DNA from: Dehalococcoidia bacterium
GTDB taxonomy: Bacteria > Chloroflexota > Dehalococcoidia > UBA2979
Assembly (NCBI GenBank): GCA_965262725.1
Contig: OZ253555.1
Location: 608,001 to 672,000, forward strand
Direction: 5' to 3'
DNA length: 64,000 bases
In this document: positions 14,128 to 56,774 of the stretch, piece after piece
How positions within the stretch are numbered: position 1 is the first letter of the stretch
Layout: each line of letters begins with the position of its first letter
The notes under the pieces: model-generated
Database searches by the model: none
Told to the model about the DNA's origin: nothing
What the model saw: the letters and a program-made list of their open reading frames with translations, nothing else
Position numbers and translations under genes: made by a program

Positions 14128-14460
14128 CTACTCGGGCTGGATCGGAATCGCCTCGACGGTGCCGGGTACCTCGTTGAGCCCGAGGCCCCCCGATCCGGGG
14201 GCGAAGCGCCACCACAGCCGCATCGAGTCGCGCAGCGCGTCCACCTGATCTGTCGGATCGTCACCGGGAAGACAGTTGCCGAGGTGGTCGTCCAGCACGA
14301 GCGCGCCGACCGTGTCGATGCCGGAGCGTATCGCCATGAGCTGCGTCACGACCTCCTCGCAGGATCGATCATCGTCGAGCATTCTCGCGATGCCGCGGAC
14401 CTGGCCCTCGATGCGGCGCAGCCGCGCGCGCATCGGATCCGGACGGGTGCCATCGGTCAT
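14128..14460 (-). CDS. csoR: CsoR/RcnR-family metal-sensing repressor
   Basis: RLRRIEGQVRGIARM...C...H...C (x-C-H-C fingerprint). Confidence 0.88.
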   Translation of the reverse strand: MTDGTRPDPMRARLRRIEGQVRGIARMLDDDRSCEEVVTQLMAIRSGIDTVGALVLDDHLGNCLPGDDPTDQVDALRDSMRLWWRFAPGSGGLGLNEVPGTVEAIPIQPE

Positions 14461-14528
14461 GATCCATCCCTCGTTCGCCGCCGGGCCCGCGGGGCCCCGT
14501 CCTCGCCCGGCCCACCGCATGCTGCCGG

Positions 14529-14584
14529 TTGACATACCCCTTAGGGGTATCTAGAATACTAGGCGACCACCTCGCGCCTGTCAA
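14529..14584. promoter_or_regulatory. Overlapping divergent sigma70-type promoters with a CsoR-type operator
   Basis: Plus strand TTGACA(14529)-17-TAGAAT(14552); minus strand TTGACA(14584)-17-TAGTAT(14561); palindrome ATACCCC-TTA-GGGGTAT at 14534-14550. Confidence 0.85.
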
Positions 14585-14672: not shown

Positions 14673-15002
14673 ATGATGGCTCATCCTGCCGACACGACAG
14701 ACGACACGTTCGACCAGGACGTCGTGCAGAGCGATCTCCCCGTGATGGTCGACTTCTGGGCGCCGTGGTGTGGGCCGTGCCGCATGGTCGCGCCGCTCGT
14801 AGAGGAACTCGCCGACGAGTACGACGGACGCGTGAAATTCGTGAAGCTCAACACGGACGAGAACCCGCGCGTCGCCGGGCAGTTCGGGATCCGCTCGATT
14901 CCCACGCTTCTGGTGTTCAAGGGCGGCAAGCCGGTGGGGCAGATCGTGGGCTTCCGGCCGAAGAGCGACCTCGCCAAGCATCTCGAGGCGGCGCTGGTCT
15001 AG
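14673..15002 (+). CDS. trxA: Thioredoxin
   Basis: [16 protein letters not shown]. Confidence 0.96.
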
Positions 15003-15063: not shown

Positions 15064-15570
15064 CTACGTGAGTTGGCGGTCGGCCCGGGTCGACTTGTCG
15101 ATGCGGCGCCCCTGCTTCTCTTCCGCCCGTGCCAGCGCGCGACCGCGCTCCGGGTTCGGATCCGGAAGCACGCCGTAGATCGCGCGTCCCTCGTGGTCCG
15201 CGGGAAGATGCTCGGTGACCGGAAGACCTTCCGGCGTGCAGAACAGCAGTCAGTGGCAGTACTTCCACCGCTGCATCTCCTCGCAGGGGCAGATCCACGT
15301 CGAGCGCGTCGCCTCCTCTGCCTTGTCGGTGTAGAAGTTGCACGGGCAGAGGGGACGCCCCACCTCGTCGATGTGCTTCGCGAGCCCGATGACGAGGAAC
15401 TCGGTGATCTCGCGCTGCGGGTGCAGGTAGCTCCCGCTCTTGCGGGCGAACGACGTCACGAAGCGGGACATCTTCTCGATGTTGCGGGGGTCGGCCTGCG
15501 CGCGATCGGCGTCGGTGACCTGATCGACAGCGTATGCCTGGGCGTCACCCGATCCGGTGCTGTCGCTCAC
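15064..15570 (-). CDS. Ferredoxin:thioredoxin reductase catalytic subunit, predicted selenoprotein (UGA at 15250-15252 read as Sec; 168 aa)
   Basis: CPC...CPC...CH[UGA]LLF matches the FTR CPC/CPC/CHC pattern; the frame stays open to TAG at 15064; SECIS-like hairpin follows. Confidence 0.88.
15219..15234 (-). promoter_or_regulatory. Bacterial SECIS element
   Basis: CCGGAA-GGUC-UUCCGG hairpin starting 15 nt after the in-frame UGA; the G-first apical loop resembles the E. coli fdhF SECIS. Confidence 0.8.
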
Positions 15571-15747
15571 CGGCCGCTCCCCCGTTGCACGCGGTGCCTG
15601 TCAGTATGGTGACGGCCGGACGTGAGGCACAAGCGGGACCGTGGCGGCGTGGTGCGCGGGGACCCGGGCTCCGCGGTCGGTCCACAGTGGGCCGTGACTC
15701 GGACCGGCGGGTGCCCGGCGGCGGGTGGAAGCGGGGACGGTGATCCC

Positions 15748-16677
15748 GTGGACGATATCGACATCGCTATCGTGGGCGGGGGGCCGACCGGACTCGCCGC
15801 GGGCCTCTACGCTGCGCGGGCGCGCCGCCGTACGGTGCTCTGGGAGCGGGCCGTGCTCGGCGGGCAGATCGCGCTCACCTCGCTGGTTGAGAACTATCCG
15901 GGTTTCGCCGACGGCGTCCTGGGTCCGGACCTCAGCATCGACATGCACCACCAGGCCGAGAAGTTCGGCATGGAGACGCTCTACGGCAGCGTCGACGGGC
16001 TGCGTCGCGAGCCGCCCCACTACGTGCTCAGCACCTCGGACGGCGAGGTGCGTGCGAAGACGGTGATCGTCGCGGCCGGGGCGGATCCCGTGAAGCTGGG
16101 CGTGCCGGGCGAGGAGGCGCTCACCGGCCGCGGCGTCTCCTACTGCGCGACGTGCGATGCGGCCTTCTTCGCAGACGAGGTCGTCGCGGTCGTCGGCGGC
16201 GGCGACGCCGCGGTGGAGGAAGCGATCTTCACCACGCGCTACGCCCGCCGCGTCTACCTCATCCACCGTCGCGATCGGCTCCGTGCCTCGACGATCCTCC
16301 AGCAGCGCGGGCTCTCCAACGAGAAGATCGAGCCGATCTGGAGCACGGTGGTCGAGGAGATCCGGGGCACAGGGGATGCCCAGGTCGCGGCGCTGGCGCT
16401 CCGCCACGTCGTGAGCGGTGAGACGCGGGATCTGCCCGTCGCGGGCGTCTTCATCTTCATTGGGCACCGCCCCAGTACGGAGCTGCTGGCGGGCCTGGTG
16501 CCGCTGGATGGAGGCGGCCACGCCTACGTCAACCTCTGGATGGAGACCGGGCAGCCGGGTCTGTTCGCGGCCGGCGACGTGCGCGTCGACTCGGCGCGCC
16601 AACTCGCGACAGCCGCCGGAGACGGCGTGACCGCGGCCGTACGGGCCGAGCACTACCTGCAACAACACTTCGACTAG
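15748..16677 (+). CDS. trxB: NADPH-dependent thioredoxin reductase
   Basis: GGGPTG, ENYPGF, CATCD, GGGDAA, HRRDRLR, FAAGD. Confidence 0.95.
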   Translation: MDDIDIAIVGGGPTGLAAGLYAARARRRTVLWERAVLGGQIALTSLVENYPGFADGVLGPDLSIDMHHQAEKFGMETLYGSVDGLRREPPHYVLSTSDGEVRAKTVIVAAGADPVKLGVPGEEALTGRGVSYCATCDAAFFADEVVAVVGGGDAAVEEAIFTTRYARRVYLIHRRDRLRASTILQQRGLSNEKIEPIWSTVVEEIRGTGDAQVAALALRHVVSGETRDLPVAGVFIFIGHRPSTELLAGLVPLDGGGHAYVNLWMETGQPGLFAAGDVRVDSARQLATAAGDGVTAAVRAEHYLQQHFD

Positions 16678-26520: not shown

Positions 26521-26585
26521 TGGCGGGAGTGCGTGGGAGTCGAACCCACCCAGGACTGCGACGCAGCCCCACAACGGTTTTGAAG
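26521..26585 (-). tRNA. selC: 3' half of tRNA-Sec (att duplication, not an intact gene)
   Basis: CUUCAAA loop (UCA anticodon), long variable arm, 5-bp T stem with UUCGACU, 8-nt acceptor strand and GCCA end; upstream sequence cannot form the anticodon stem, D arm or acceptor 5' strand. Confidence 0.88.
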
Positions 26586-26851
26586 TTCCGACCGGTACGT
26601 CCCGCCGCGTGTTGGCACGTCCCCTCTCAAACCTGAGAGTCCGCAAAATCAGCGTCTCTCGTGCCCGTCTGTCCTGCCTCATTTCGTTCCGTGGTGACAG
26701 ATTTGACGCCAAATTGACGCCAACGGCCAAGTGGATCGCCGGTGGCGTCGGCGCTGGCGAGGTCGCCTGCTGGGGCACCCATGAGGACGGTGGGAGCGCA
26801 TTCGTACCCACCTTGCCCGTTACGGGGAGCGAGGGGAGTCGCTTAGAGCGG

Positions 26852-29800
26852 TCAGATCAGGGCGATACAGTCGTCGAGGAAGGAGTGGACATCGGCGTTG
26901 GGCACCCCCCAACCGAGACTCTCGAGCACCAATTGCTTGAGGTCGGCCTTCTTCATCGCCGGCTCCGCCTCCAGTAGTTGACGGAGGAGGGCGAGTACCT
27001 CGTCGGGCGGCATCTCGTCCACTCGGCGCTCCCCGCGCTTCCGGACGACTGCCTCTTTCGCCCCCGGTAGCCATAGCACGCGCAGCGCCTGACCTGGCCG
27101 GCCTAGGATGTCCGTGGCCTCGACGAGTCCCTGTCGCTCTGCTGCTGAGCAGGCCCGGTTCAGCGCTCGACGGGCGCGCTGTGTAACGTACTGCTTGCCC
27201 GAAGCGCGCACGATCACTCGATAGGCGCGACGAGCGACAACGGGGCCCTCGATCGCCACGATCTCGGTCAGCAGGTCTACGAGATGCTCCGTGCTGATGC
27301 TTTCCGCCTCGGGGATAGCACCCGACGGGTGCCACGACACGTAGGCGGCGAGCACGTGGGCAGGCAGCACATGCTCGCCCGAAGCCTGGTGACCAGCGGG
27401 CGGTAGCGGCAGTTGCTGGTCGCGGCCCGCGACCGGAGCCTCGGCCGATCGCGGGTCTTGGCCGGCCGCGACGTTCCCACCAGCGGGCGCCTCCCCGGAC
27501 CCGCGCGGGAGATCCCTTGGCACGCGATCGCCTGCAGAATCTCGTGGGGAGGCTTCGTCGTCGCCACGCGCTGAAGAGGATGGCTCCGGCGCCGCCTCGT
27601 TCGGAGACACGTCCACGCGGGACGCGCCTCGTGTTCCGGACGAACGATTGGATGGGTCCCCTGCGGGGTTCTCCCGAGTAGCATCATGGCCGTCGCGAGC
27701 GGTCTCGCCATGTAGATCCTCCGATCGCTCGGCTTCGTCGCCGCCCGCAGATTGCGTCGCTCGGGCCCGTTCCAGGGCCTCTTCGATTGCTGCCACCTCG
27801 GCGTCTGGATCCCGGATCCACGCCGTCGACCACACGCGGTGGATGCGCCACCCGAGGCCTTCGAGCACGTTCTGGCGGAGCCAGTCACGGTCGCGCGCGG
27901 CCGGGGAGCTGTGATAGGTCGCGCCGTCGCACTCGATTCCCAGGTCGAAGCCCGGCCCGCTCTCGGAACGAATCGCCAGGTCGATGCGGTACCCCGACAC
28001 TCCGACCTGCGAATCGACACGGTGGCCGCGACGCCGGAGCGCATCGCGCACCGCCTCCTCGAAGGGGCTCTCCGGCTCACCCAGGCCCGTGACTTCGCTG
28101 TCGAGCGCAGTCTCCGGCTTCTGGACGTACTCGAGGTATCGGCGAAGCTGCCGCGCGCCGGGTGTGGTCGACGTGATGCTCTCCGGTCGTAGCGAGCGTA
28201 CGACGGTCATCGACCTGCGAGCGCGCGTCACCGCAACGTTGAGGCGGCGTTCGCCGCCTGCCCGATTGAGGGGTCCGAAGTTGTTCCGCACGACGCCCGC
28301 TGCGGTCGGCCCGTAGCCGATGGAGAGCACCACGTGGTCCCGCTCGTCGCCCTGCACGTTCTCGAGGTTCTTGACGAAGAATCGCTCCGGCACGTCCTCG
28401 CGGAACCGATCGTCGAGGTGACGGCGCCTGATCCTCTCGAGGTCGATGAGGCTCTGGATGAGATCGGCCTGCGGGCGCGAGAGCGCGCCGGCGTTCGCCC
28501 GAGCCGGCTTCACACAGCAGCTCGCGCAGGACCGACTCGTTCCACTCGCGCGACGCGACCAGCGAGCGCAGCGCTTCCATGTCTGCGTCGATCGCCACCC
28601 AGTCGGTCTCCCGTCCCCGGAATCGCCTACCGATCTCGGCACCAAGGCTGCCCTCGAGCTCCCGCCAGCGCTGCCGGCCGCGTTCCACCTCGAGGGCGCC
28701 TCGGACCGCTTCCAGCGACTCGGCAAGTGTCAGCCGGGCGGGAGAGCGCAGCTGACCCCGGATCACGCGCTGATCCCTGCGGTACGCACCGCCGACGAGT
28801 CGCTTCCAGCGGCTCTGGTGGTCGGTGCGGTAGCGCACGAGCATCTCGTCGTCCACGAGATCGACCAGCGTCTCGGCGTAGCGCTCAGTGAGGGCGGCCT
28901 CGTCGGCGCCGAGTCGCTCGAGCAGCGAGCTCGCGTCCTTGCACGCGGCTTCCGCTTCGTCTCGTCGCTCGGCATCGAGCCAGTGCTCCGGCACGGGACG
29001 GAGGCCGACGATGGCCTCCGCCACGCCCCCTGCATCCTCGAGGTCGCGCAGTGTCCGCGGACCTTCCTGGTCGAGCGCGGCGGCGATGGATGCCGCGCTC
29101 GACCCGAACCGGCCGAACGCGTCGGCGATCGCCTCGGCCTGGTCGGCGAGGGGGCCGGGGTCCTTGCTCAGGGCGCCGGACCAACCCGGCCCGGCCGCGA
29201 CTGCTATGACCTCCTCCTCCGCGGGTGCGAGGACGAGCCTCTCGCGCATCGTCCGATAGTCGAGAGTCGGCGCCGCGCCGCCACAGGCCGAGGCGAGCCT
29301 CTCCTCGAGTTGCCGACGCACTTGTTGTTGCTGCTGTTGCTCGCCTACGACCTTGCGCAGGCGTCCGACGACGCCGCGCTCCAGCCACGGCCCGGGCACG
29401 GCATGCCCTCTCGCCAGCGTCGCCAGTAGGTCGATCTGGCGGCTCGCGTCTCCCACAGACCGAACGTCCCCCGCTCCCAGCCAGTCGGCGTGGCCGCTCA
29501 GGTGCTCACGAAGCCGCGCGATGGCCTCCAATGCCTGTTCGAGATCCGCCCGGATGCGGCCGATGAGTTGCAGCGAGCCCTGCGATGACCTGAGCGCTCT
29601 CCACGGGCTCGACTCGTGGGCACGGAACTCGTCGGGCCGGCGCGCGACGCGGGCGGCGGTCTCACGAACTTCCCAGATCCACTGCTGGTCGAGTTCGGAG
29701 GCCGGGGGCGTCGTGAAGGAGTCGAAGCGCGCCGTCCCGTGAAGGCGCGCGTACTCACCCTGTACTTGGTGGATCGAGAGGCCGAGCGGCTCGCGCCTCT

Positions 29801-31130
29801 GGTGGAGGAGCCGCACGACGCGGTTGAGACGGTTCCGGTGGGCTGCCAGATCCTCGATGGTGCTGGTGTCCGGTGTGTGCTCCCTTCGCTGAGAATCGTC
29901 CACTGCGCGTCGGAGCTGGACGTAGACCTCGCGCTTGCGTCCCCTGTCGCTGTGCAGATCGAGGCAGAAGATGCCGAGCCCGCATTCCTCCAGTCGGCGC
30001 TTCACCACGTCGAGTGCCGACGTCTTCTCGCTCACGAAGAGAACGCGCTTCCCGTCGGCGATCAGCGTCGCGATCAGGTTCGCGATCGTCTGGCTCTTCC
30101 CCGTGCCCGGGGGGCCGTGGATGACCAGGTGCTCCCCATCGCGTCCCGCCTCGATGGCTTCGAGTTGGCTGTAGTCTGCCGGTAGCACCGTGTACTGGTC
30201 TCGGAGATCCAGCAGATCATCGAGGCGCCCGCCGGCCAGATCCCCGATGCTCGGCGCCGCGTAGCCATCGCCGCGCGGCTCCGACGGGCCCGCCTCGTCT
30301 CCGCCCGCCGCCAGCAGCCGCGTGAGTCCACTGCGGGGCCCGTGCTGCCGCATCTGCTCCAGATCCTCGTGCATGGCGAGCTTCGAGTAGGAGAAGGTGC
30401 CAAGCACGAGGGAATCATCAACTGCCCAGTCCTGCCGGTCTCCGATTCGCTCGCGCACTCGTCCGAGATACGCCTCGATCGATTCCGCCTCGGCCGCTTC
30501 GTCATCCAGGTCGGGTACCTCGACGCCGAGCTTCGCGAGGGAGTGGCGCAGCGTGGGATTGACGATCCGCTCGTCGTCCTCGCGAACGAGGCGGAAGGGA
30601 TCGCGCGGAGACTTCCGCTCGAGATCACAGGGAATCAGGACTAAGGGAGCCCGTCCCCTCACGCCCTCGGAGTCGACCCAGTCAAGAAACCCGGCTGCGA
30701 GGAAGAGTACGTTGATCCCCTGCTCCTCCTCCCACTCGCGATCGCGGCGACGGAGGTTGCCGAGTCTCCGCTGCAAGTCGCCGACCTCGCAGTCGGTTTC
30801 GAGGTCCCCGGTAATGACGACCGGTTCCTCCTCTTGCTGCTCGTCTGACCCGGCTCGATTCGTGAAGCCCGGTCGCGACGTCGCCCGTGGTGGCGCGTAG
30901 GGAAACTCAAGGCCGCGTCGCGACCGGCGAAGTCTGGCGTCGAGCTCGTCGGCCGTGATGCCGGTGATACCGGCGGCACTTCGCCCGGGTTTGAAGTAGA
31001 TGAGGTTGTTGCGGCGGTTCAGCTGAAGCAGCCGCGTCTGCCACTCGCCGATTCTGTGTGCGATGCGATCGCTGCGCGCGTCCACGCCCGGCGGGGCGTT
31101 CGTCGTGTCGCCCGCATCGCTTCGAATCAT
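26852..31130 (-). pseudogene. DUF4011-SF1 helicase-Vsr-like nuclease (Hhe-like), internally deleted
   Basis: WQTRLLQLNRRNNLI, GPPGTGKSQT; C-terminal part NVQGDERD, RRLNVAVTRAR, ESPFE, GIECDG..YHS; frame shift near 28490; Walker B and motifs III-IV absent. Confidence 0.85.
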
Positions 31131-31249
31131 CCCTCGGCTCCCCCGCTCCCGGTGGAATGATAGGGAGATCACGGACTGTGTCGATGCCGAGCCTAGGAAC
31201 GCGCAGGCGAGGCTCCTGGACCCAGGGCACCGACGCTAGGCACAGCGGA

Positions 31250-55616: not shown

Positions 55617-56774
55617 ATGGGCAAGCGTGACTACGGTAGCGGTGCCCTCAGGAAGCGCGGGAAGGGCTGGCAGGCCACGCTCTGGCTCCCGCGTGATCCG
55701 GTCACCGGCAGGCGCACGCGCAAGACGTTCACGGCTGCGACGAGGAAGGAGGCTGTGGGGCTGCGCAGCGCATTCCAGCGTCGGCTCGAGCACGGCCTGG
55801 ACGTGGTGGGAGCAGAGTCACCACTCGGCGACTACTTCGAGCGCTGGTTGCGCGAGCACGCGGCCCGATCCGTTTCGGCACGGACACTGTCCGTCTACCG
55901 GCAGACCGGTCGTGTGTTCGTGGCTCCGATTGCCTCGGTGCGCTTGTCGGACGTCCGCCCGCCGCACATCGAGAGAGCGCTCGATGCGTACCTGCGGTCC
56001 GGTGCGGGCAACCGCACCGCCGCCAAGCACCTGACCGTCCTGAAGTCGGCGCTCGCCCGGGCGGTGAGGCTGGAGTTGATCTCGCGCAACCCGGCGGACG
56101 CGGTGACGAAGCCGCGCGCAACCCGCCGCGAGATGCGCGTGGCCGACATGGAGACACTTGCCGCCATCCTGGGCGCCTGCGCGGATCCCGATTTCAGGCG
56201 CCTGATCAATCTTGCCGTCCACACGGGCCTCCGGGCCGGGGAACTGCTCGGCCTGAGGTGGGCCGATGTCTCCTGGGAGCACTCGCTGCTGCAGGTGAAG
56301 CGCTCCCGCAACCTGTTCGCCGAATCCGGGTTTGCCGAGCCGAAGACGGCCGCGGGTCGCAGGGCGATCGCGCTCTCTGAGCGGGAGATAGCGCTTCTTC
56401 GCGAACATCGCTCTGCCCAGGCTGAGAGACGCCTCTCGCTCGGGCCGGCATGGCCGGGCACTGACCTCGTGTTTCCCCGCGCGGATGGGAAGCCGGAGAA
56501 CGTCGAGCGTCTCGCCCGGCAGTGGCGCGAACTCTGTCGCCGTGCCGGCGTGTCGGGACTGCGATTCCACGATCTCCGCCACACGAGTGCGACGATCGCC
56601 CTCACCAGCGGCGTCCACCCGAAGGTGGTTCAGGAGCGTCTGGGGCACTCGACCATCAGCGTCACGCTGGACACGTATTCCCACGTCCTCCCGTCCATGC
56701 AGGAAGACGCGGCGCACCGGATCGAGGAGGCGATGTCCGTCCTCGACGGCCGGGATCGCGTTCGAACGAATTGA
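55617..56774 (+). CDS. int: Tyrosine integrase, intact
   Basis: GLRAGE, PKT, FHDLRH, LGHS, DTYSH; N-terminal arm-binding domain; GGAGG ribosome-binding site. Confidence 0.95.
   Translation: MGKRDYGSGALRKRGKGWQATLWLPRDPVTGRRTRKTFTAATRKEAVGLRSAFQRRLEHGLDVVGAESPLGDYFERWLREHAARSVSARTLSVYRQTGRVFVAPIASVRLSDVRPPHIERALDAYLRSGAGNRTAAKHLTVLKSALARAVRLELISRNPADAVTKPRATRREMRVADMETLAAILGACADPDFRRLINLAVHTGLRAGELLGLRWADVSWEHSLLQVKRSRNLFAESGFAEPKTAAGRRAIALSEREIALLREHRSAQAERRLSLGPAWPGTDLVFPRADGKPENVERLARQWRELCRRAGVSGLRFHDLRHTSATIALTSGVHPKVVQERLGHSTISVTLDTYSHVLPSMQEDAAHRIEEAMSVLDGRDRVRTN

Follow-up and report, generated by a model that had tools for sequence, protein, structure and literature searches.

Ferredoxin:thioredoxin reductase (FTR) is the textbook example of an enzyme whose iron-sulfur cluster cleaves a disulfide in two one-electron steps. 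According to PMC3838966, the first electron from ferredoxin opens the active-site bond of FTR, leaving one sulfur to attack thioredoxin and the other to bind a cluster iron as its fifth ligand; the second electron then releases the products. Forms of this protein that contain selenocysteine (Sec, U) have already been predicted. Two Sec-containing FTR homologues were predicted in 2008 by Zhang and Gladyshev from Global Ocean Sampling (GOS) reads, and one of them carried Sec at both redox positions (CPU...CIU) within ~104 residues (PMC2398784). Two reviews list a Sec-FTR family with a CxU motif (PMC9312934, PMC13188914), and the second of these cites for it the NCBIfam model NF041072, "FtrB family double-selenoprotein". 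The first-pass annotation of the DNA studied here had suspected that Sec-FTRs might have been predicted before, and these sources (PMC2398784, NCBIfam NF041072) agree with it. We analysed a stretch of 64,000 nucleotides from a Dehalococcoidia bacterium (positions 608,001 to 672,000 of contig OZ253555.1, assembly GCA_965262725.1), and this whole stretch is called the window. On its minus strand, a gene interrupted by an in-frame UGA was found to encode a homologue of the FTR catalytic subunit (FTRc). We hold with good confidence that the product is a single-subunit FTRc homologue in which the UGA is recoded as Sec via a GGUC hairpin, that Cys77 and Sec107 form the redox pair, and that thioredoxin is the likely substrate.

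The gene and the elements that belong to it were located as follows; SECIS stands for selenocysteine insertion sequence.

15064..15570, minus strand: Sec-FTR-like gene, with GTG start at 15570, Sec-UGA as codon 107, TAG stop at 15066..15064, and 168 residues
15250..15252, minus strand: recoded UGA (U107), in frame and aligned with Cys87 of Synechocystis FTRc
15577..15583, minus strand: Shine-Dalgarno-like GGGGGAG, 6 nt 5' of the GTG start, read from the sequence
15218..15235, minus strand: SECIS-like hairpin, G-CCGGAA / GGUC loop / UUCCGG-U, with six Watson-Crick pairs and one G-U pair

With translation table 11, the open reading frame (ORF) on the minus strand covered 15570..15250 and ended with ...WKYCH at the TGA 15252..15250. 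When the TGA was read through, the frame continued for 61 codons to the TAG at 15066..15064, and a product of 168 residues with U at position 107 was obtained. The window protein showed the motif CPC-x16-CPC-x8-CH-U, followed by LLF. The first-pass annotation had described a frame that ends at YCH with UGA where FTR has CHC, LLF directly after this codon, and about 60 further codons. This description was recovered in every point. The first CPC motif was encoded by TGC/TGT codons, and the gene contained a single TGA. The match of the closest relative (L022) began at query residue 1. The tail (residues 108-168) contained one Cys, C111, and no CxxC, and FeThRed_B was the sole Pfam match of the protein.

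Membership in the FTR family was clear from the profile and from the alignment. Pfam PF02943 (FeThRed_B) matched residues 31-115 with 85.4 bits against a cut-off of 22. In phmmer, query residues 29-115 were aligned without a gap to positions 9-95 of the Synechocystis FTRc chain 1dj7_A, and the E-value to 7bzk_A was 6.6e-24. C75, C77, C94, C96, C105, and U107 corresponded to chain positions 55, 57, 74, 76, 85, and 87 of 1dj7_A. The six-cysteine signature was in register, with five Cys kept and the sixth position (87) occupied by the UGA/Sec. It had been proposed from the sequence that the gene hides a selenoprotein, a homologue of the FTR catalytic subunit in which Sec occupies the position of Cys87, and the gapless alignment, together with the TGA in 79 of 80 related loci, supported this assignment. 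An AlphaFold2 model was built without the cluster from 76 aligned sequences, and its mean predicted local distance difference test score (pLDDT) was 73.7. Residues 24-117 of the model were superposed on the FTRc chains 7c2b_A and 7c3f_A with Z 11.4 and a root-mean-square deviation (rmsd) of 2.0 Å over 94 residues at 40% identity (VIA-align). Foldseek gave a probability of 1.00 to the FTRc fold. Residues 118-168 had no counterpart in classical FTRc in the model superposition. The search for the variable subunit (PF02941, FeThRed_A) gave 0 matches in the whole genome, which is 91.6% complete, and the control, Synechococcus elongatus, was detected. The first-pass remark that no variable subunit lies next to the gene was valid for the entire genome at this completeness. 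As that annotation suggested, the C-terminal extension may take the place of this subunit; the enzyme may be a homodimer, like those of the 4tpu type, or a monomer with its tail over the cluster. Only one FTR-like gene was found in this genome by the FeThRed_B search.

Relatives were sought in a genome set with a single representative for each prokaryotic species, and 80 loci were obtained, nearly all of them in metagenome-assembled genomes of Dehalococcoidia/Chloroflexota. As the first-pass annotation had anticipated, the homologues did not stop at CH. The aligned codon was TGA in 79 of the 80 related loci and TGC, a Cys codon, in the remaining one (L041), and the tblastn matches crossed the UGA position. 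Another thirteen Cys forms from this clade were retrieved. Conservation continued beyond the codon. In a 76-row alignment, 21 columns were invariant among the 61 post-UGA residues, and the consensus was U-LLF-C-x2-EGLP-(I/V)T-E-(H/Y)-LP-x2-HEG-x3-YG-x3-DP-x3-GRA. The invariant post-UGA residues were encoded by four to six different codons, for example at L+15, P+16, G+21, G+26, R+37, and A+38. Invariant residues with varying synonymous codons are what selection on a translated protein would leave.

The use of TGA elsewhere was also counted. It ended 1430 of the 2510 long open frames in this genome (70.6% GC), and it was the true terminator of the same FTR-like gene in 32 of the 80 relatives. 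A genome-wide reassignment of TGA was ruled out by this stop-codon use. Taken together with the hairpin and the Sec machinery described below, the window gene is almost certainly a real Sec-encoding gene.

The hairpin CCGGAA-GGUC-UUCCGG was present at 15234..15219. It began 15 nt past the UGA, exactly at the spacing given in the first-pass annotation. Its folding energy was −9.8 kcal/mol in a 22-nt context, a value matched by 1 of 200 shuffles. The bacterial SECIS (bSECIS) model (PMC13188914) has a loop of 3-9 nt, a stem of 4-16 bp, G in the first two loop positions, a UGA-to-loop distance of 16-37 nt, and a minimum free energy ≤ −7.5 kcal/mol. The window hairpin lay within this model throughout, with a 4-nt loop, a stem of 6-7 bp, GG at the start of the loop, 21 nt from UGA to loop, and the energy given above.

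Comparison with the relatives showed that the RNA itself was constrained. The core GGAA-GGUC-UUCC was constant in the 50 distinct sequences of Sec forms, and the lower stem occurred in the compensatory variants GAUG/CAUC, GACG/CGUC, and GAUC/GAUC. In a register with one bulged nucleotide (columns 16-24 with 29-36), 96% of the cells were paired in these sequences, and three of the eight pairs were changed on both sides. None of 500 shuffles reached the observed paired percentage or the covariation score, and slid controls paired at most 62.5%. The continuous register was tried as the family consensus and rejected. It paired 63.7% of the cells over the 50 sequences, which was no better than the slid controls, and the bulged register was taken as the family consensus for this reason. 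In its GGUC loop, the four pairs that close it, and the bulge beneath them, we take this hairpin to resemble the SECIS of E. coli fdhF. The codons over the hairpin were frozen as well. Codons +7 to +9 were GAA-GGT-CTT in 80 of 80 Sec forms, although by a rough estimate from long open frames GAA, GGT, and CTT make up only ~21%, 14%, and 9% of their codon families here. Gly and Leu codons elsewhere in the FTR-like gene varied freely. The Cys form L041 had GAA-GGC-ATG at the hairpin site and no hairpin.

The genome carried the machinery for Sec insertion. An intact tRNA-Sec was found at genome positions 747140-747232 (71.6 bits; anticodon tca in ARAGORN). In the genome search, selA gave 457.7 bits and selB gave 284.9 bits, which was above its cut-off. 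The selD gene was of the Sec type, with one in-frame TGA in the context ...ASCAG[U]AGKMGP (C1:2792527-2793462, L018). The selA, selB, and selD genes and an intact selC, for which the first-pass annotation had proposed to look, were all present above their family cut-offs. The selD gene is itself a selenoprotein gene, and two hairpins were predicted within 60 nt after its UGA.

One more element of the window had been connected with Sec decoding.

26525..26622, minus strand: tRNA-Sec-like fragment, 31.3 bits on RF01852, where the gathering score is 47

ARAGORN detected no tRNA in the window, and Rfam gave no match there at its gathering thresholds. Over alignment columns 40-104, which run from the anticodon loop to the CCA end, the fragment differed from selC by one mismatch, and its 5' part mostly differed from selC. 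The first-pass annotation had listed this fragment in support of Sec. Its presence was confirmed, but it was of no value as evidence for Sec decoding. The fragment is irrelevant to decoding because it is an inert 3' duplicate of selC, and the real selC lies ~112.6 kb away. The fragment was also considered as a second UGA-decoding tRNA, and this was rejected in view of the duplicated 3' stretch and the mostly different, poorly pairing 5' half.

The distribution of Sec and Cys was then compared within the class. A Pfam FeThRed_B search of 301 same-class genomes gave a match in 151, and the breakdown covers the 150 matches listed. Among these, 70 genes had no internal stop, 49 had one TGA, 30 had two TGA, and 1 had a TAG. 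The reading covered 48 of the 49 single-TGA genes among the matches listed. In all 48, the TGA was located only at the Cys87-equivalent and never at the Cys57-equivalent alone. The window type, with CH-U and the conserved tail, accounted for 41 of them, and 7 had CY-U with a CxxC...CxxC tail. All five double-TGA genes that were examined read CPU...CPC...CIU. A quick tree, with support from the Shimodaira-Hasegawa-like approximate likelihood ratio test (SH-aLRT) only, was calculated from 103 rows (84 Sec, 19 Cys), which were chosen by similarity to the Sec query and supplemented with hand-picked Cys forms. At least three changes between Cys and Sec were needed on this tree, and Cys and Sec forms were interleaved in the window clade. 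The Cys form L110 was sister to the Sec form L140 from the same genus with an SH-aLRT support of 96. Selenium appears to prefer one position, because Sec was found at the Cys87-equivalent in 48 of 48 single-TGA genes from two clades. We suggest only tentatively, and with less than even confidence, that selection puts selenium on the residue of the FTR redox pair that interacts with the cluster and that the intermediate would be a [4Fe-4S] cluster with a direct Fe-Se(Sec) bond.

Two further differences between the forms were observed. C111, at codon +4 after the UGA in U-LLF-C, was present in 94 of 103 distinct Sec forms and in 1 of 19 Cys forms, which mostly had Val there. The second motif was CPC in 86 of 103 Sec forms versus CAC in 19 of 19 Cys forms. 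Most of this pattern can be explained by shared descent, since Val also occurs in some Sec forms and Cys in one Cys form. C111 may have a protective or resolving role. The CY-U genes formed a clade of their own (loci L122-L127 and L178 in genomes G169, G295, G150, G267, G057, G256, and G152). This clade reads CPC...CPC...CY-C/U, and its tail appeared rubredoxin-like on reading of the sequence, without a Pfam scan. No mention of a Sec variant of this clade was found in the accessible parts of the papers on Sec-FTRs and selenoproteins.

A mechanism can be proposed for the window protein. SelB with Sec-tRNA(Sec) would be recruited by the GGUC hairpin 15 nt past the UGA, inside the coding sequence. 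By homology, C75, C94, C96, and C105 would hold a [4Fe-4S] cluster, and a Cys77-Sec107 selenylsulfide would lie beside it where classical FTR has its Cys57-Cys87 disulfide. If the enzyme works like classical FTR, ferredoxin would donate two electrons one after the other through the cluster, and the Se-S bond would be opened. Cys77 would attack the substrate disulfide. In the one-electron intermediate, Sec107 would be bound to a cluster iron as its fifth ligand, and it would then resolve the mixed disulfide. The substrate would most likely be the thioredoxin that is encoded 61 nt away. For the classical enzyme, Dai et al. in 2000 and 2007 reportedly described Cys87 as the cluster-bound, resolving residue and Cys57 as the exposed nucleophile, and no open text that assigns Cys87 to the cluster was found in the literature. 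The Fe-Se bonded intermediate follows only if this role of Cys87 is right.

The neighbouring genes bear on the substrate.

14673..15002, plus strand: thioredoxin gene, PF00085 with 116 bits and TIGR01068 with 131.7 against a cut-off of 96.8; convergent, 61 nt from the FTR stop
15622..16677, plus strand: thioredoxin-reductase-like flavoprotein gene, divergent; Pyr_redox_2, and TIGR01292 with 332.3 against a cut-off of 343.45; carries CATC and HRRDRLRA
14128..14535, minus strand: gene for a CsoR-type metal-sensing repressor, PF02583 with 78.7 bits; divergent from the thioredoxin gene
14529-14557 (plus strand) and 14584-14556 (minus strand): two facing promoter-like sites between the CsoR and thioredoxin genes; 2 found versus 0.1 expected

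The true start of the flavoprotein gene is probably downstream of 15622. The thioredoxin and CsoR genes kept their positions in 23 of the 80 related loci. The flavoprotein was found upstream in 13 of the 80; in 12 of these loci the tblastn match spanned ~281 of its 351 residues, and in L023 only 42. The two promoter-like sites matched the consensus at 11/12 and 10/12. In the repressor, the Cys...His-x3-Cys pattern of copper-sensing CsoR was read from the sequence.

Several observations weigh against the proposed reading. The linkage to thioredoxin was limited to the 23 of 80 loci mentioned above. About 47 loci had instead a PAC2-family protein, ribosomal protein S14, and parts of an ATP-binding cassette (ABC) transporter, and these neighbours of the larger sub-clade gave no functional lead. 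Because the neighbours of these ~47 loci are unrelated, the thioredoxin link is limited to the sub-clade of the window, and for this sub-clade the gene order is suggestive. The cell may not depend on the FTR-like enzyme for thioredoxin reduction, because a thioredoxin-reductase-like flavoprotein is encoded next door. The hairpin of the window was not unusual in 48-nt (z −0.62) and 66-nt (z −0.17) contexts. Its weight rests on the comparison with relatives, since the single sequence is unremarkable in these longer contexts. In addition, the window and its four closest relatives lacked the bulged register that bears the covariation and had a continuous CCGGAA/UUCCGG stem instead. The model, which was built without the cluster, had pLDDT <50 at residues 91-98, around the second CPC motif. 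Finally, the insertion of selenium, the binding of a cluster, ferredoxin as the donor, thioredoxin as the substrate, and the Fe-Se intermediate are what we infer from these data.

Some of these points would also fit a real FTR-fold selenoprotein that acts as a ferredoxin-dependent reductase on another disulfide, a persulfide, or a small redoxin, with the thioredoxin neighbour being incidental. Such roles have been proposed for further FTR-like disulfide reductases. The sparse and sub-clade-specific linkage, the unrelated neighbours of the ~47 loci, and the flavoprotein beside the thioredoxin gene are in its favour. It is also in line with solved FTR-like enzymes that have other fused domains, namely rubredoxin in 4tpu and glutaredoxin in 7pwe, and with the conserved C-terminal part of ~50 residues that has no counterpart in classical FTRc. 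However, the core was 36-41% identical to FTRc proteins that reduce thioredoxin, all catalytic residues were in register, including the His of CHC, and the syntenic partner is a thioredoxin above the TIGR01068 equivalog cut-off. We regard a substrate other than thioredoxin as rather unlikely, and we lean moderately towards the view that the enzyme is a ferredoxin-dependent thioredoxin reductase.

Two other explanations concern the UGA itself, and both are given very little probability. Were the UGA a true stop, this would be a truncated gene or a pseudogene, and its product would be a protein of 106 residues without the second redox residue. The table 11 ORF does end at this codon. Among the 150 public-library representatives listed, 15 ended at query residue 106, and the five that were read ended in ...YCH; one short entry began right after the UGA. 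These truncated entries are the output of gene callers and not evidence of translation, and they agree with the first-pass expectation that standard annotation would cut the gene here. A genuine stop is extremely improbable in view of the TGA kept in 79 of 80 loci, the Cys forms that continue through the position, and the 61 downstream codons, in which the protein sequence is conserved and synonymous sites are variable. The conserved and covarying hairpin and the complete Sec machinery also argue against it. Read-through with a residue other than Sec is scarcely more probable. Trp or Cys might be inserted by near-cognate decoding, by a reassigned code, or by a tRNA-Sec-like tRNA carrying Cys. 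The inserted residue is not deducible from sequence data alone, and the window does contain a sequence that resembles tRNA-Sec and has UCA in its anticodon loop. However, this sequence has only the 3' stretch of selC. Its D-arm differs, pairing of the 5' strand of its acceptor requires a bulge, and mismatches interrupt its anticodon stem. It scored 31.3 bits where the gathering score is 47, and it was rejected by ARAGORN. A reassigned code is opposed by the use of TGA, which is the commonest terminator in the genome and closes this very gene in 32 of 80 relatives. The hairpin agrees with the SECIS model of the SelB type, and selA, selB, and selD are present and conserved. Recoding of the UGA as Sec is the reading that we retain.

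The selC duplicate was also of interest for the structure of the chromosome. The selC gene (C1:747140-747232; L001:1497-1593) and the fragment were ~112.6 kb apart on the same strand. The duplicate looks like the attachment (att) repeat of a large element that has inserted at selC and would extend from 26.6 kb in the window to beyond the window end. The FTR gene was located outside the interval between the two selC copies. Within the interval, there were three integrase-family matches, at genome positions 664148, 677933, and 719124; the first corresponded to 56148-56690 of the window, and none was beside selC. Defence-like neighbours were observed at both ends, with a Cap4-nuclease/AAA gene by selC, and DUF4011-AAA_11 and AAA_12-MTES_1575 by the fragment. 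At 26852-31172 of the window, on the minus strand, two long overlapping ORFs looked like parts of a single helicase-nuclease gene, broken by a frameshift or an assembly error. The ORF at 28077-31172 carried DUF4011 and AAA_11, and the ORF at 26852-28726 carried AAA_12, the MTES_1575 restriction endonuclease domain, and DUF559.

The window gene belongs to a selenoprotein family that had already been predicted. It represents a variant that is widespread and routinely truncated, and it is not a new kind of protein. Its novelty is limited because Sec-FTRs were predicted in 2008 and have a curated NCBI model. Dehalococcoidia are a large, mostly uncultured group, and their redox metabolism is mis-described, since the genes of this clade are truncated at the UGA by gene callers. 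The gene is common and its signal is very clean, and NCBI's only Sec-FTR model leaves the window clade uncovered. No description of the single-Sec extended clade was found in the accessible Sec-FTR and selenoprotein literature; the database BSepDB (PMC13326102) may well contain these genes. What is new here is the strict position preference of Sec (48/48), the evidence for repeated switching between Cys and Sec, and the frozen-codon evidence for the SECIS. If selenium does sit on the cluster-binding residue, it would be a natural heavy-atom probe for Se extended X-ray absorption fine structure (EXAFS) and for 77Se nuclear magnetic resonance (NMR) or electron paramagnetic resonance (EPR). It could then reveal why selenium is preferred at the cluster-binding step. 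The clade would also offer a widespread natural setting in which to study site-differentiated cluster chemistry with a selenolate ligand.

Among known systems, one that the window protein resembles closely is the classical FTR catalytic subunit (1dj7, 2pu9, 2puk, 7bzk, 7c3f). It shared CPC-x16-CPC-x8-CHC in exact register at 36-41% identity, and the core folds were alike (Z 10-11.4, rmsd 1.5-2.0 Å). However, it has Sec for Cys87, its genome has no variable subunit, and about 30-50 extra conserved residues are present at its C-terminus. Classical FTR belongs to cyanobacteria and chloroplasts, whereas the host of the window gene is a non-photosynthetic Dehalococcoidia bacterium. The ferredoxin-dependent disulfide reductase (FDR) of Methanosarcina acetivorans (4tpu) and the glutaredoxin-FDR fusion of Desulfotalea psychrophila (7pwe) resemble it in being single-gene enzymes with no variable subunit. 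This likeness was weak but significant (E 9.9e-7; Z 5.8-6.4), and the window protein has neither a rubredoxin nor a glutaredoxin domain. The NF041072 family is likewise a homologue of the FTR catalytic subunit (COG4802/PF02943) with Sec at the Cys87-equivalent (C-x-U), and NF041072-like double-Sec genes also occur in Dehalococcoidia, where 30 genes had two TGA among the 150 matches listed. In contrast, the window protein scored 33.3 bits against the NF041072 cut-off of 160. It has one Sec and not two, with CPC where NF041072 has CPU and CHU where it has CIU. Relative to the ~104-residue GOS protein, it adds a conserved tail of ~50 residues, EGLP-ITEHLP-HEG-YG-DP-KGRAL-R. Judged by these sequence features, the window clade is a related but separate subfamily outside any curated model.

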